A stretch of DNA of 32,000 bases from Candidatus Saccharimonadota bacterium (GCA_030429505.1 JAUIFI010000001.1:240001-272000), one strand, 5' to 3'; shown: positions 20,501 through 23,238, counted from the stretch's first letter. Made by a program: numbers and translations. The notes: generated from the letters alone by a model not told the origin.

Positions 20501-23238
20501 TCGATCGACCCTTGACCGAAGATTTTATCGGCGAGGTGGGGACAGAGATTACTTACCTCTATGATCAGGGAACTAATGGCATTGGACGATTGACCGCTGT
20601 TACCTCGCAAGGAGCAACCGATACCTATACATATGATATTGTGGGACGCTTAGTGCAAGAAGAGCGGGGGATTGATGGGCAAACGTTTGTCACTATCTAT
20701 ACCTACGACCTCTTGGGACGACCATTGACCATTGTCTACCCGAGAGACAACGTGATTGTTTCCTACCTCTACAATCAAGCCGGACAGCTCAATCAGGTCA
20801 AAAAAGGCGATGACTTTATTCTCACCAACCTGGACTACACACCGACGGGAAGTGTGGGAAAAATCGAATACGCTAATGGCATCACCACGACCAATACCTA
20901 TGACATCGAAAAACTTTATCGACTGACTTTCAAAAATACCACCGATGGCACCACCGATTTTCAAGATATTGAGTATGCCTATGACAAAGTCGGTAATCTT
21001 CAGATCATACTCAACAACAATGATAATGATACAAAAAAATCTGTTATCTACATCTACGATGATCTCTATCGCCTTAAGAGAGTTAATATGTCAGGAACTG
21101 CCGACGGACAACACGTCCTGCGAGATTACCGCTACGATATTATCGGCAATATGACTCGTCACGAAGATTGGGCTGACGATTATGCCTATGCTGGAAATAA
21201 TGACACCACCAGTTCAAGTACAGTCGCTACACCACACGCGGTCACGTCCATTGGTTCAAAGAATTTCACCTATGACGAAAATGGAAATATGGTGTCTGAT
21301 GGGACATGGACTCATACATGGGATTATCGCAATCAACTTTCCTCCAGTACCAATGGTACAAAAACTATTACTTACACGTACGATCATCAGGGACAACGAA
21401 CGAGAAAAGAAGACACCGATGAAAACAAGAAAACGTATTATGTGAATAAAATATTTGATCAAGAAGGCGGCGAGAATAAATTGTACTTCCGAGCAGGAGA
21501 CATGAAAGTCGCGACCCAGAGCGAATCATCCTGCCAAGCTCCACAAGGCATACCGATCACCACCTGTCAGGAATTACAAAATATAGATACAGATCTCGGC
21601 GGCACATACTACCTTGCCAATGACATTGATTGTTCGGATACGATCAATTGGAATAATGGACAAGGATTTGATCCTCTAGGTGATGACAATACGGCAGTTT
21701 TTACGGGACGATTGGATGGACAAGGACATGAGATCAAGGATCTGTATATCAACCGAGATACGATCACGATGATCGGACTCATTGCCCAAACTGGGAATAA
21801 CGCTGAGGTAAAAAATATCGGAATCACCAATATCAACCTTGTCTCAAACGGAAAAGCAGGTGGAATCGCAGGACAGATGAAAACCGGAAGCGTGCTAGAC
21901 AATGTCTGGACAAGTGGAAATATCATCGGAACCAATGCAGGAGGGATCGTCGGACGACTCTACGACGGAACGATTACAAATTCGTATTCTCATGCCAATA
22001 TCAACGCCAGCAATGCCGGAGGAGGGATCGGAGGCAAACTACGATACCAGAGCGGCACACAGATACTGGAAAACGTGTACTCCACAGGAGCAATAACAGG
22101 AACCAATCAAGTCGGAGGCTTGGTCGGTGATGCGGATATGGGGACAGCGAGTGCAACGAATTCGTATTGGGACATGCAGACGTCAGGGCAGAGCACGAGT
22201 CCTTTGGGAGTGGGAAAAAGTACGGTGGAGATGAAGATGAAAAACACCTTCCAAAGTTGGGACTTTGTGGATACGTGGGAAATGGAGGAAAATGTAAGTT
22301 ATCCGATGTTGCAGGTGGAAAATAGTGGAGGAGGGAGTTGTACGGGAGAACCGACATTGGTGTATCATCATGAAGATCACTTGACTGGAAGCAATGTCGA
22401 CACCGACGAATCGGGAGCCTTGAACCAAGTCCTAGACTATTATGCGTTTGGGGCAACCCGAATAGATGAACAATACGGAAACTTCACTAATGACTATAAA
22501 TTTACAGGGAAGGAAAAAGACACAGAGACAGGCTTGTATTACTATGGGGCGAGGTATTACAATAGTGAGCTTGGGAGATTTATTAGTCGTGACACGTGGG
22601 AGGGGGAGTTGGAGAATCCGCAGTCTCTGAACAGGTATTCGTATACAGTTAATAACCCTCTTAAATATACAGACCCTACGGGAAACTTTTTTCAGTATTT
22701 CCAGTTAGCTTGGGAATTGATTGCTCCTAATACAACTTATGCTCCAAGTCCTCAATCTGTCGCAAACATACCAAATAATACAATATCACCAGCACAAACC
22801 GCCCTGAATATTCTTAGTGATAGAATACCAGGAGGAAAAGGGGGAACAGGGACTCTGAATTTTGCACGAAAAAACGCTCAAAAAGCTAAATCGATTTGGT
22901 CTTCAACTAGAGACAGAACATCAGTTCAAAATGCCTTTAATCACTATAAAGATCATAAAGGAGATTTTTCTGATGTACAAAACGCAAAGCAATATGTTGA
23001 AAAAGCTAATAATTTCTTAAGTAAACCTCCGAAAGGATCACAGCAGTATACAAGACAAACTGGAAATAAAAATACAATTATATATGATAAATCAAGTAAT
23101 ACATTAGGGGTAAAAACGCCAAATGGGACACCAGCATCTATATTCAAGCCAAAAGAGAAAGCAGGGAATTTTATCAGTAATGTGATTGGAGACATCAAAA
23201 AACGAATAAGTAGATCTTCAAAAAAACAGAATGAGTAA
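17578..23238 (+). CDS. Secreted SpvB-domain YD/RHS-repeat polymorphic toxin (1,886 aa) with a GLUG-repeat insertion and a variable C-terminal toxin domain
   Basis: Starts at MRKILSLLVCSLYSLSLLLVPSVTFAQE (Sec signal), followed by an acidic Pro/Thr/Glu linker. The SpvB motif is SGSATFRYPLWVPEGRLGMTPDISLRYNS...GYGWSL. TcdB-mid-like motifs are LPPTEFDY and YDYQDGHYF...EYAGFH. More than 20 YD repeats follow (YxYDxxGN/R). The RHS core reads YHHEDHLTGSN...YKFTGKEKD..TGLYYYGARYYNSELGRFISRD...NPLKYTDPTGN. Confidence 0.92.
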   Translation: MRKILSLLVCSLYSLSLLLVPSVTFAQEETPPSETSTEETTTQQTDAQVPSEEPETPPETSSLVDPPPDDEEEVEVKETPSPAIDFSKFLKGLKGKSDVDLFSGSATFRYPLWVPEGRLGMTPDISLRYNSNNRQFDSLVGYGWSLPTNAIFRSTAHGVNELYDRNDFSVDIEGNTEELISTDAENGQYGARYESDFTTFEFLNNSWKATDTRGMIYTFGTSASNRLDDPNDSSRVYKWMLEKIEDRNGNTVTFTYHKQDGQIYPDTIRYTNFGETQGIYEIRFIRGNRFAYTNYTRAFKTVTNRLIDKIELYSYDSGTAQLIYYYDLDYTERNAAVVHLDSVTIKKGANNLPPTEFDYYDGTENIEGKRIDYLSTVQYPYGAEQHFFYKPSTAYRINGELQNKTPFIIHTVHKSTSQANTSSPVYTTQYDYQDGHYFYEPADAFKKEYAGFHIVTVTDPADNIRKLYFHQDQYSADGTDNGEFEDHIAKKGRQYRSEQYDDAGNLYDVTITKWDKTSLSDDDEDKDRFFLFQKRQTSITYDGDTTKRAKATEWEYDTYGNITKETSYGEVTLDNEKGDFTDILTDKREQTITYATNSDEYLYAYPQTETLKDNANTIIGETKTYYDDLPLGSVEKGLVTKQEQLVTSPDISLTTKTEYNTYGLPTKTINARNYATTTTYDTHKLYPITIINPKNQTTNFTYDYFWGEPTETTDPNGAKSVTVFDDFGRIKEQKVTDPANTSQELKTTEYTYELTTEPIGILEKTFPHHDNIEVLKKTYLDGFGRTIQVRTEAEGTDQFTVLDTIYDERGNVAKETLPVFATGISFSAPATDAKGNEYTYDPLNRRTTITNDIGTTTITYDDWKQTTTDPEGNDRDLTTDAFGNLITVTEHLDGETYDTIYEYNALNQMTKLTDALGNYKTFAYDLLGRRLTETMLHTPNDTTFGTWNFSYDANGNMTSRTDPKNQIVNWTYDELDRPLTEDFIGEVGTEITYLYDQGTNGIGRLTAVTSQGATDTYTYDIVGRLVQEERGIDGQTFVTIYTYDLLGRPLTIVYPRDNVIVSYLYNQAGQLNQVKKGDDFILTNLDYTPTGSVGKIEYANGITTTNTYDIEKLYRLTFKNTTDGTTDFQDIEYAYDKVGNLQIILNNNDNDTKKSVIYIYDDLYRLKRVNMSGTADGQHVLRDYRYDIIGNMTRHEDWADDYAYAGNNDTTSSSTVATPHAVTSIGSKNFTYDENGNMVSDGTWTHTWDYRNQLSSSTNGTKTITYTYDHQGQRTRKEDTDENKKTYYVNKIFDQEGGENKLYFRAGDMKVATQSESSCQAPQGIPITTCQELQNIDTDLGGTYYLANDIDCSDTINWNNGQGFDPLGDDNTAVFTGRLDGQGHEIKDLYINRDTITMIGLIAQTGNNAEVKNIGITNINLVSNGKAGGIAGQMKTGSVLDNVWTSGNIIGTNAGGIVGRLYDGTITNSYSHANINASNAGGGIGGKLRYQSGTQILENVYSTGAITGTNQVGGLVGDADMGTASATNSYWDMQTSGQSTSPLGVGKSTVEMKMKNTFQSWDFVDTWEMEENVSYPMLQVENSGGGSCTGEPTLVYHHEDHLTGSNVDTDESGALNQVLDYYAFGATRIDEQYGNFTNDYKFTGKEKDTETGLYYYGARYYNSELGRFISRDTWEGELENPQSLNRYSYTVNNPLKYTDPTGNFFQYFQLAWELIAPNTTYAPSPQSVANIPNNTISPAQTALNILSDRIPGGKGGTGTLNFARKNAQKAKSIWSSTRDRTSVQNAFNHYKDHKGDFSDVQNAKQYVEKANNFLSKPPKGSQQYTRQTGNKNTIIYDKSSNTLGVKTPNGTPASIFKPKEKAGNFISNVIGDIKKRISRSSKKQNE
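17869..18665 (+). other. SpvB-like N-terminal domain of the RHS protein
   Basis: DVDLFSGSATFRYPLWVPEG...YKWMLEKIEDRNGNTVTFTY...IRYTN...LPPTEFDYYDG matches the SpvB/TcB N-terminal pattern. No FG-GAP repeats follow it. Confidence 0.7.
21532..22341 (+). other. ~270-aa GLUG-repeat (beta-helix-like) module inserted inside the RHS-associated core, bounded by Cys1319 and Cys1588
   Basis: The leader is ITTCQELQNIDTDLGGTYYLANDIDCSDT...GFDPLG..FTGRLDGQGHEIKDLYI. The repeats are GGIAGQ, GGIVGRL, GGGIGGKL and VGGLVGDA. The closing segment is SYWDMQTSGQSTSPLGVGKSTVEMKMKNTFQSWDFVDTWEMEENVSYPMLQ. The module sits between ...KLYFRAGDMKVATQSESSC and GGGSCTGEPTLVYHHEDHLTGSN. Confidence 0.75.
22169..22686 (+). 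repeat. 518-bp recombination-homology block in the main RHS gene (from the GLUG tail to DPTGN)
   Basis: Aligns without indels to 26413-26930 (orphan 2), and with indels to about 27896-28326 (orphan 3). Its last ~105 bp align to 23951-24057 (orphan 1). Confidence 0.9.
22687..23238 (+). other. Variable C-terminal toxin domain of the main RHS protein (183 aa, family unassigned)
   Basis: Begins just after DPTGN, where similarity to the orphan cassettes stops. It contains AFNHYKDHKGDF...AKQYVEKANNFL...IIYDKSSNTLGVKTPNGTPASIFKP and a basic Ser/Lys tail. Confidence 0.7.

Follow-up and report, generated by a model that had tools for sequence, protein, structure and literature searches.

Analysis of a 32-kb stretch of DNA (hereafter the window, to whose first letter all positions refer) showed that the RHS polymorphic toxin P0121 carries a complete GLUG-type β-helix nested in the hairpin that precedes its RHS-associated core. 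This module is probably an outward-projecting binding module, stapled by the cysteines of its two linkers, on a secreted cocoon toxin.

The gene of P0121 (17578..23238, + strand; Pfam, NCBIfam and NCBI call) encodes 1886 aa from the ATG at 17578, as called by NCBI. Residues are numbered from this ATG; in a longer ORF starting at 17503 the Cys1319 and Cys1588 discussed below are residues 1344 and 1613. The parts of the protein follow each other in the order Sec signal peptide, acidic/Pro/Thr-rich linker, SpvB, TcdB_toxin_midN, YD repeats, GLUG insert, RHS-associated core and C-terminal toxin. The predicted signal peptide (MRKILSLLVCSLYSLSLLLVPSVTFA, followed by QEE; 17578..17655, +) was read directly from the sequence, and the NCBI start is the same ATG. 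Pfam detects a TcB-type N-terminus (SpvB PF03534, 70.5 bits; TcdB_toxin_midN PF12256, 33.3 bits), and the check for RHS profiles proposed with the original prediction returned RHS_repeat PF05593 at 82.3 bits in nine stretches and the NCBIfam profile Rhs_assc_core TIGR03696 at 76.3 bits against a cutoff of 32.5, next to a TIGR01643 match of 63.7 bits. Longer relatives also have matches to an FG-GAP/VCBS propeller (PF13517/PF01839), which Pfam did not find in P0121.

The TIGR03696 match covers 22438..22683 (+; residues 1646–1727 of the longer ORF) and includes the Asp motifs RDTWEG and DPTGN. RHS cores end in a bipartite Asp autoprotease motif, DPxG...DPxG[LN], with an Asp–Asp spacing of ∼22 residues. 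Direct reading of the P0121 core shows the second motif as YTDPTGN and the first as RDTWEG, in which the Asp is kept and the Pro/Gly pattern altered, and the two Asp are 27 residues apart rather than ∼22. The variable C-terminal toxin domain of 183 aa (22687..23235, +) is without a Pfam match, as are the immunity candidates and the upstream small proteins in the same scan, and a large TcA-like ORF is absent from the window. P0121 is a self-contained RHS cocoon toxin built like a TcB/TcC fusion and predicted to be secreted through Sec; it comes from a CPR-like bacterium with a small genome, and its relatives are annotated as Gracilibacteria or Peregrinibacteria.

The insert spans 270 aa from Cys1319 to Cys1588 (21532..22341, +). 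It is a true insertion with exactly the coordinates originally predicted, since the segment is missing in 84 of the 101 relatives in which both flanks can be aligned; there the gap is −15 to +15 aa and the flanks abut. In a MAFFT alignment of 20 RHS relatives, in which the rows of GLUG proteins fell outside the insert columns, 17 relatives place at most one residue in the 270 columns and the others 5 and 14. The left flank, consisting of the last YD-type strand and a half-loop (KLYFRAGDMKVATQSESS; 21478..21531, +), aligns to ..aGd.kvAT.. of the 101 relatives, and the right flank, the TGEPTLVYHHEDHLTGSN strand (22342..22395, +), to their vYHHxDHLsGs and to residues ∼582–600 of YenC2/RHS2. The insertion site is the hairpin that joins the last YD-type strand (..YFRAGDMKVAT) to the YHHEDHLTGSN strand, so that a folded non-YD domain (fold predicted) is encoded inside the YD-repeat region. 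The insert had been placed inside the RHS-associated core itself; it lies instead one hairpin upstream of the TIGR03696 match, which begins 33 aa past the end of the insert.

Within the insert, aa 1323–1580 (21544..22317, +) constitute a GLUG / Peptidase_M26_N-type right-handed β-helix module according to Pfam, homologues, HMM, AlphaFold2 and Foldseek. A homologue search with the insert only retrieved 194 proteins at E≤1e-3 with 90–97% query coverage, nearly all annotated with PF07581, and the best matches (E 1.7e-58) are free-standing GLUG proteins; a custom HMM trained on 242 domains gives the insert 356.9 bits. In line with the predicted GLUG / IgA-protease-type module, Glug PF07581 reaches its gathering score on the isolated insert (21.0 bits, cutoff 20.5). 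In full-length P0121 it remains below the cutoff (16.8 bits, E 0.0093), which is why the precomputed annotation misses the module. Peptidase_M26_N PF05342 is a near miss on the insert (26.7 bits, cutoff 27.7; E 3.9e-6; profile positions 147–250 only), and the NCBIfam ZmpA-D profiles match only with E 0.07–0.8.

Comparison with the family consensus revealed the conserved GLUG leader, the GGLVG rungs and the YWD...WDF...YP.L cap, and the leader and closing motifs that had been taken as a GLUG signature match this consensus near word for word. Three of the four GG[IL][VA]G repeats originally listed are exact (GGIAG, GGIVG and GGLVG), and the fourth reads GGGIGG. All 27 nearly invariant positions of the family are retained. 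The AlphaFold2 model of the isolated insert has a pLDDT of 92.6 and a pTM of 0.88, with low pLDDT in the linkers (51–63), a point against the reading proposed below, and its best Foldseek match in the PDB is 3n6z (E 1.9e-8, TMq 0.68); the IgA1 protease structures 7uvl, 6xjb, 7uvk and 6xja are matched with a probability of 1.00. With a family identity far beyond chance, the insert is a true GLUG / Peptidase_M26_N-type β-helix that is intact and probably under selection.

The mature 1860-aa chain contains only four Cys (1319, 1330, 1352 and 1588), all in or adjoining the insert, compared with a total of 0–3 in the nearest relatives (P0122–P0145). Both boundary Cys codons are exactly where they had been predicted, although the region holds four Cys and not just one pair. 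Cys1319 (TGT; 21532..21534, +) is located in the N-side linker, outside the homology with free-standing GLUG proteins, and Cys1588 (22339..22341, +) in the C-side linker, eight residues before the YHH motif and with the same spacing in orphan cassette 2 (see below). Family covariation identifies Cys1330 (TTC) and Cys1352 (DIDC; 21565..21633, +) as a pair intrinsic to the module: of the 99 GLUG-family domains that span both columns, both Cys occur in 50 and a single Cys in only one. This leaves Cys1319 and Cys1588 as partners. These two belong to RHS-specific linkers and are each 5 residues from a shell strand, and the linker residues outside them (QSESS and TGEPT, 10 aa) correspond to the loop length of insert-free relatives. 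Moreover, the diverged orphan 2 (STSSCAGGSIIIYHH) keeps a Cys at −8 from YHH although its linker has otherwise diverged. Judging from these sequence features, a Cys1319–Cys1588 disulfide most likely re-closes the ancestral hairpin beneath the module. Two points count against such a staple: the insert modules of other relatives are without it, and the N and C termini of the β-helix may be ∼35–45 Å apart, in which case the linkers would have to be nearly extended.

Downstream of P0121, the locus contains three core-homologous fragments with different tails and small immunity-like ORFs interleaved. Sequence comparison shows that orphan cassette 1 (P0110; 26394..27422, +) consists of a GLUG tail, a core and a different C-terminal domain, that orphan cassette 2 (27856..28350, +) pairs a GLUG tail with a diverged core and carries a 4-nt insertion that shifts its frame, and that a short orphan (23944..24624, +) starts no earlier than the final ∼32 aa of the core (DTWEGELENPQSLNRYSY...). 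The homology common to the cassettes (22166..22465, +) comprises GLUG tail, linker and YHHEDHL strand and is ∼95% identical to 26410–26709; its first ∼150 nt are ∼96% identical to orphan 2 as well. This homology begins at ∼22169 (DMQTSGQ), inside the GLUG tail and 57 aa before Cys1588, in agreement with the predicted start in the last ∼55 aa of the insertion.

The same hairpin carries other modules in ∼10% of the relatives (10 relatives), indicating that it is an insertion hot spot. Five have two-Cys modules of ∼70–115 aa, three have β-rich modules of 160–230 aa without a family match, one has a MopE+LamG insert of 567 aa and one a low-complexity spacer of 328 aa. Most of these inserts were without a Pfam match, and a PDB sequence search with two of them gave nothing meaningful. 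A second protein combining RHS and GLUG was found neither with the custom HMM nor in homologue searches, which were run with three query sizes because the search apparently returns proteins of ∼0.65–1.75 times the query length. When protein representatives were searched with aa 1200–1715, the best 150 were all giant multi-GLUG proteins, none with RHS flanks; tandem GLUG arrays dominate this ranking so strongly that it says nothing about how rare the architecture is. Junction-peptide scans of genome and metagenome contigs gave pattern matches only, with no tblastn-confirmed relative, and a literature search pairing GLUG with RHS returned no relevant paper, while one for the GLUG motif gave only two incidental mentions.

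The architecture occurs just once in the data searched, a point against the reading proposed below, and the three right-junction copies within this locus are the only hint of lasting conservation. Elsewhere, GLUG modules stand alone or form tandem arrays in the surface proteins of various organisms, CPR bacteria and archaea among them. The original suggestion of an undescribed architecture holds for the combination of a GLUG module with an RHS shell, which is new in the data searched. It does not extend to the general principle of binding domains in RHS shells, which is already known: other domains use the same hairpin, and exterior binding domains inserted into YD repeats have been described for SGS1 (PMC9935623).

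We propose that, in the course of evolution, the final shell hairpin ahead of the core received a complete ∼258-aa GLUG-type β-helix at its tip. Hanging on two short linkers with one Cys each, the module would project outward near the plugged C-terminal pole and act as a ligand-, target-cell- or surface-binding domain, and could be a built-in targeting element for a toxin without a visible TcA or T6SS partner. Both the exterior location and the binding function are the most likely reading of known homologs and shells. In the Streptococcus pneumoniae IgA1 protease, the homologous β-helix folds independently, is tethered by a loop and binds the IgA1 Fab (PMC7695701), and the receptor domains inserted into the YD repeats of SGS1 decorate the exterior of its shell (PMC9935623). 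A location in the lumen was rejected as unlikely based on size, the predicted disulfides and the multi-domain inserts at the same hairpin. Reported shells have free cavities of ∼44,000 Å3 (PMC5851990, PMC13018210), compared with ∼58,000 Å3 that we estimate for β-helix plus toxin. For a place in the lumen, the inserts of the relatives would be either oversized or too much like extracellular binding domains. No ligand is known to us for GLUG modules other than that of IgA1 protease, which counts against a binding function.

The module could also serve the producer, anchoring the toxin to the surface of the cell that makes it, whether it binds the wall or S-layer or associates with itself, much like wall-binding domains in Gram-positive RHS toxins of the WapA type. 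Sec-secreted P0121 has no LPXTG motif or other anchor that we could find, its genome context is Gram-positive-like (sortase, signal peptidase I and type IV pilus ATPase), and large surface proteins of CPR and archaea often contain GLUG modules. Sequence alone, however, cannot tell such anchoring apart from target binding, and we regard it as unlikely.

Since the module adjoins the plug that seals the C-terminal pole, being just one hairpin before the core, it might instead be no passive adhesin but a latch worked by a ligand, such that binding moves the β-helix, loosens the putative aspartyl-protease plug or exposes the cocoon, and the toxin is released. In IgA1 protease, the binding of substrate shifts the β-helix by ∼10 Å, and the β-helix gates the active site (PMC7695701). 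Characterised systems, however, are proposed to let the toxin out at the other, N-terminal end (PMC8765631), and with a basal disulfide in place the module could move without moving the shell. The unrelated domains at the same hairpin in relatives are also easier to explain by general display than by a dedicated mechanical link; a latch is quite unlikely. An enzymatic β-helix, i.e., a tailspike-like polysaccharide lyase or hydrolase that digests the target's capsule, wall or S-layer glycan and so lets the cocoon through, is improbable: the pectate lyases, alginate lyases and phage tailspike depolymerases at Foldseek ranks 7–50 match with E values of at least 0.018 and TM of 0.13–0.43, indicative of the generic β-helix fold only, and an enzymatic role was rejected on this ground. 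All significant Foldseek matches are GLUG/IgA1-protease N-terminal domains, for which we know of no catalytic activity, and the insert is without a Pfam match to a catalytic family. Lastly, a functionless product of neutral or recent domain shuffling, or an assembly artefact, would suit the sole RHS+GLUG example found but is very improbable given an intact, in-frame ORF, uniform GC across the junctions (0.43–0.44), retention of all family-invariant residues with a fold predicted at high confidence, symmetric Cys-bearing linkers, and three independent right-junction copies in the locus, one of them diverged and yet keeping the linker Cys.

Beyond the binding module favored here, we tentatively consider that, in this clade of cocoon toxins of CPR-type bacteria, which would work without TcA or T6SS, the pre-core hairpin is a dedicated, evolvable display slot, into which different lineages may plug GLUG, LamG+MopE, two-Cys or other β modules. 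The targeting module would then directly adjoin the exchangeable toxin, and in this genome the GLUG tail might have become the 5′ homology arm for cassette switching. If so, targeting and payload would form one recombining unit, and the Cys1319–Cys1588 staple would be an adaptation that keeps the shell whole under a large insert. These findings bear on how RHS cocoon toxins without a T6SS spike or TcA injector reach and enter their targets, especially in Gram-positive-like and CPR bacteria, and P0121 and the hot-spot pattern of its relatives point to one specific surface hairpin for installing targeting domains. Because Pfam misses the GLUG module in the full-length protein, nested architectures are likely under-counted in domain-architecture databases.

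P0121 probably falls into the group of RHS shells decorated with additional domains, to which SGS1, teneurin and TcB belong. As in SGS1 (PDB 8FJP) and teneurins, a folded domain forms a segment within the YD repeats, which in those shells is displayed for binding, and the right flank of P0121 aligns to the SGS1 core. SGS1 has CBM, lectin-CRD, β-propeller 2 and wedge domain inserts (PMC9935623). In contrast to the Ig-like lectins or propellers of SGS1 and teneurins, P0121 carries a GLUG β-helix, and its host is bacterial, with orphan cassettes and a polymorphic toxin that is predicted to be cleaved; moreover, the last SGS1 insert ends ∼190 aa upstream of the core, whereas that of P0121 occupies the last pre-core hairpin. 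With the BC components of Tc toxins (YenB/YenC2 4IGL, TcdB2-TccC3 and RHS2 5KIS), P0121 shares the SpvB and TcdB_toxin_midN N-terminal region, the YD cocoon, the RHS-associated core (with a putative Asp protease in P0121) and the encapsulated C-terminal toxin, and TcB likewise has a β-propeller inserted into its repeats. P0121 differs from them in being a single polypeptide with a Sec signal peptide, in lacking a detected FG-GAP/VCBS propeller and a TcA gene in the window, and in its GLUG module, which is part of no solved BC structure. The module has the same fold and sequence family as BACOVA_03286 (3N6Z) and the N-terminal domain of S. pneumoniae IgA1 protease (6XJB/6XJA/7UVL); there, however, it is N-terminal to the M26 protease or in tandem, and not nested in an RHS hairpin between two extra linker Cys. 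WapA and bacterial teneurin-like proteins are T6SS-independent, surface-exposed YD-shell toxins with variable adhesion domains and cognate immunity genes (PMC13018210). P0121 resembles them as a Sec-secreted, T6SS-independent YD-shell toxin with a predicted adhesion-type domain; their adhesion domains are N-terminal to the shell, whereas the P0121 module resides in a shell hairpin adjoining the core.

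The long open reading frame that carries the insert (17503–23238, forward strand) is called at NCBI as a product starting at the ATG at 17578 (P0121), an RHS protein of 1886 aa encoded on a 1,023,206-bp contig. It has a typical N-terminal Sec signal peptide (MRKILSLLVCSLYSLSLLLVPSVTFA, followed by QEE) and matches the Pfam families SpvB (70.5 bits), TcdB_toxin_midN (33.3) and RHS_repeat (82.3, nine stretches) as well as the NCBIfam models YD_repeat_2x (63.7 bits) and Rhs_assc_core TIGR03696 (76.3; cutoff 32.5). This domain content makes it a single-chain RHS cocoon toxin resembling a TcB/TcC fusion. 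Its closest relatives, annotated as Candidatus Gracilibacteria or Peregrinibacteria, share 45–55% identity. Signal peptide and SpvB domain are separated by a low-complexity, acidic, Pro/Thr/Glu-rich linker of ~85 aa (17656–17910), which may be a stalk or glycosylated region.

The original prediction of a GLUG module inserted into this protein held up, down to the coordinates 21532–22341, which span exactly Cys1319 to Cys1588. Two phmmer queries, one made of the 119 aa that precede the insert and one of the 127 aa that follow it, were compared with the 119 best full-length relatives: 101 contain both flanks, and in 84 of these the flanks abut within −15 to +15 residues. In a MAFFT alignment, 17 of 20 relatives have no more than one residue in the 270 columns of the insert. 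Searches with the insert alone returned 194 proteins (best E 1.7e-58, coverage 90–97%), nearly all with PF07581, and the insert scores 356.9 bits against a profile from 242 domains of its matches, a profile that picks out no further protein in the set of 120 RHS relatives. In Pfam, the isolated insert matches Glug at 21.0 bits (cutoff 20.5) and narrowly misses Peptidase_M26_N (26.7 bits; cutoff 27.7). Glug reaches only 16.8 bits in full-length P0121, which is why the precomputed annotation lacks it. The family consensus, ITTCTELQNI..DYVLANDIDCSDT.NWN.G.GFEPIG..FTGTFDGQGYKITNLYINR ... NSYWDTETSGQ..GKTTAEMK..TF.GWDF..IW.IEE..YPYL, agrees nearly word for word with the leader and closing strings first read from the DNA. 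Three of the four proposed GG[IL][VA]G repeats fit, but the fourth reads GGGIGG. An AlphaFold2 model of the module (90-sequence alignment; pLDDT 92.6, pTM 0.88) consists of an N-terminal helix, stacked beta-strand rungs and a C-terminal cap. Its top Foldseek match in the PDB is 3N6Z, a “putative IgA1 protease” of Bacteroides ovatus (E 1.9e-8, TMq 0.68); next in rank are the IgA1 proteases 7UVL, 6XJB, 7UVK and 6XJA.

The module had been placed inside the RHS-associated core; instead, it lies one hairpin upstream of it. The TIGR03696 match (residues 1646–1727 of the open reading frame) starts 33 residues past the insert end, and the right flank aligns by sequence to YenC2 (4IGL_B 588–689), RHS2 (5KIS_B 582–689), TccC2, Tse5 and SGS1. 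The insert therefore occupies the hairpin that joins the last YD-type strand (KLYFRAGDMKVAT) to the conserved (L/I)VYHHxDHL(T/S)GSN strand. The core itself is a variant (22579–22686) whose first Asp motif reads RDTWEG where xDP(I/L)G is usual and whose spacing from RDTWEG to DPTGN is 27 residues, ~5 above the usual (additional ELENP); the orphan cassettes and the closest relatives share it.

Insert-free relatives have a loop of 6–15 residues at this hairpin (e.g., KVAT-DSAPDG-LVYHH in P0123 and KVATLEREGVDANLIYHH in P0124), and 10 of 101 relatives carry 66–567 extra residues at exactly this position. These comprise a LamG domain with four MopE metal-binding motifs in P0163 (567 aa), a family of ~70–115-aa modules with an N-terminal C-x(13-24)-C motif in P0126, P0127, P0134, P0147 and P0152, beta-rich modules of unknown family in P0197, P0234 and P0236 (160–230 aa), and a 328-aa spacer rich in Glu/Thr/Val/Pro in P0159. 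The C-x(13-24)-C modules have no match in Pfam; they lie between ..kvAT and vYHHxDHL and combine the Cys motif (e.g. GC.PPAAGDW....SCTF) with beta-rich repeats. Three further relatives have inserts one hairpin off, including four IPT/TIG domains in P0157. Thus, the hairpin is a recurrent insertion site, a general slot of which the GLUG module is one occupant.

Past the signal peptide, P0121 has only four cysteines (1319, 1330, 1352 and 1588), and the closest relatives P0122–P0145 have 0–3 per about 1500–1700 residues. Cys1330 (TTC) and Cys1352 (DIDC) are intrinsic to the module: in the family, 99 domains extend over the two alignment columns, and 50 of them have both cysteines and one a single one. 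Cys1319 and Cys1588, present at the two insert ends as originally noted, lie outside the homology to free-standing modules (approximately insert positions 5–262), in P0121-specific linkers. Their placement is symmetric (AT-QSESS-C...C-TGEPT-LVYHH), and the ten residues outside them equal the ancestral loop length. In orphan 2, the linker has diverged (LQVESTSSCAGGSIIIYHH vs. LQVENSGGGSCTGEPTLVYHH), yet the Cys is kept eight residues before YHH. A Cys1319–Cys1588 disulfide closing the insertion neck, as originally proposed, would fit this arrangement. The linkers are modeled at low confidence (pLDDT 51–63 in the isolated-module model), and if the beta-helix termini are 35–45 Å apart, forming this bond would require an almost fully extended conformation of the ~14 linker residues.

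Two downstream C-terminal cassettes, orphan 1 (26394–27422) and orphan 2 (27856–28350), share DNA homology with the main gene that starts at the same nucleotide, ~22169 (GGGACATGCAG, codons D-M-Q). The start thus lies 57 codons ahead of Cys1588 and, as foreseen, inside the module tail, whose ~150 nt are ~96% identical across the three copies. A switch to orphan 1 would alter only 2–3 cap residues; the tail therefore acts mainly as a homology arm. Three copies of the right junction (GLUG cap, Cys linker and YHH strand) are present within the locus, indicating that the insertion predates the cassette duplications and arguing against an assembly artefact as its source. Past LQVE, identity falls to ~75% in orphan 2 (27856–28378 with its out-of-frame continuation), and a frame-shifting 4-nt insertion (GAGCTTGCT vs. 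GA----GCT) lies just upstream of GRFISRD, beyond which the reading can be continued in a different frame (28163–28378); orphan 2 is probably a decaying pseudogene. Each orphan is preceded by one of two homologous multi-TM genes (25916–26410 and 27419–27880, each ending ELYYKVPWKKVF), repeats are found at 26340–26394 and 27822–27876, and each orphan ATG overlaps the end of the preceding TM gene. The arrangement resembles a unit of TM gene plus orphan that was duplicated in tandem with a period of 1482 bp.

No second protein with RHS and GLUG modules was found among the 119 best full-length relatives using a GLUG-insert profile, and of the 120 best matches to the isolated insert just one, orphan 1 (P0110) of this locus, has RHS flanks. 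A 737-aa C-terminal query gave 117 matches, of which 93 were GLUG-positive, 22 RHS-flank-positive and none both. All matches to these queries were ~0.65x–1.75x the query length, so that long multi-domain hosts are out of reach for domain queries. In a filter-free scan across 1.84 billion clusters, none of the 150 best representatives combined the module with RHS flanks, although giant tandem-GLUG proteins swamped that list. Junction peptides scanned in GTDB genomes and JGI metagenomes revealed no second such protein, and a literature search for GLUG and RHS returned nothing relevant. Together, these negatives are strong, not exhaustive.

The window also codes for a sortase, a signal peptidase I and a PilT-like (PilT/T2SSE) ATPase, with a GluR0-like ligand-gated K+ channel and an fn3-containing protein as further neighbors (as a group at 56–832, 1578–2657, 3071–4171, 10260–10904 and 10915–12147). 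This context fits a small-genome CPR-type organism with a Gram-positive-like envelope. Immediately upstream of the RHS genes of this clade, one or two copies of a small secreted four-Cys protein (154–199 aa; blastp E values 1e-12 to 1e-31) are encoded in three of three loci examined (16590–17072 and 17096–17569 here; 7512–7976 in L001; 6748–7347 and 7418–7927 in L002). The family has no match in Pfam and shares the motifs D(L/I)NGDGLxDYxY (FG-GAP/VCBS calcium-loop-like), C..LN(T/N)G.GW....YKCV and a C-terminal YYGDCA. Longer relatives have FG-GAP/VCBS propeller domains that are missing from the short RHS clade, and these small proteins might therefore provide a propeller-like partner in trans.

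Among homologues of the module, only the N-terminal beta-helix of IgA1 protease has been characterised by experiment; it folds independently, is tethered by flexible loops and binds IgA1 Fab (PMC7695701). In SGS1, binding domains encoded as YD-repeat insertions decorate the RHS shell exterior (PMC9935623), and TcB and teneurin offer looser parallels (PMC9935623; PMC5851990). Reported free cavity volumes are ~44,000 Å3 (PMC13018210, PMC5851990), whereas by our own estimate (residues × 110 Da × 1.21 Å3 per Da) a beta-helix of 258 aa and the 183-aa toxin would together take up ~58,000 Å3; the 567-aa P0163 insert could not fit at all. From these precedents and volumes we infer that the GLUG module would project outward near the plugged pole of the cocoon and would serve as a binding or targeting element for a toxin for which neither TcA, propeller nor T6SS context was detected by domain scan and in the 32-kb window. 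Less probably, the module could be a ligand-operated latch on the plug, or a glycan-degrading enzyme; pectate lyases and tailspikes appear among its Foldseek matches only at E ≥ 0.018. It could also anchor the toxin to the producer's own surface. Finally, and least probably, the insertion could be a neutral accident; the insert retains 27 of 27 nearly invariant family positions.

P0121 belongs to the RHS polymorphic toxins as well as to the GLUG/M26_N beta-helix family. New features are the RHS and GLUG combination, its exact site beside the core, linkers that carry Cys residues, and cassette homology reaching into the module. As neither propeller nor TcA was found, P0121 is, strictly speaking, not a Tc complex; in how it works, we liken it to the domain-decorated RHS shells of SGS1, teneurin and TcB.
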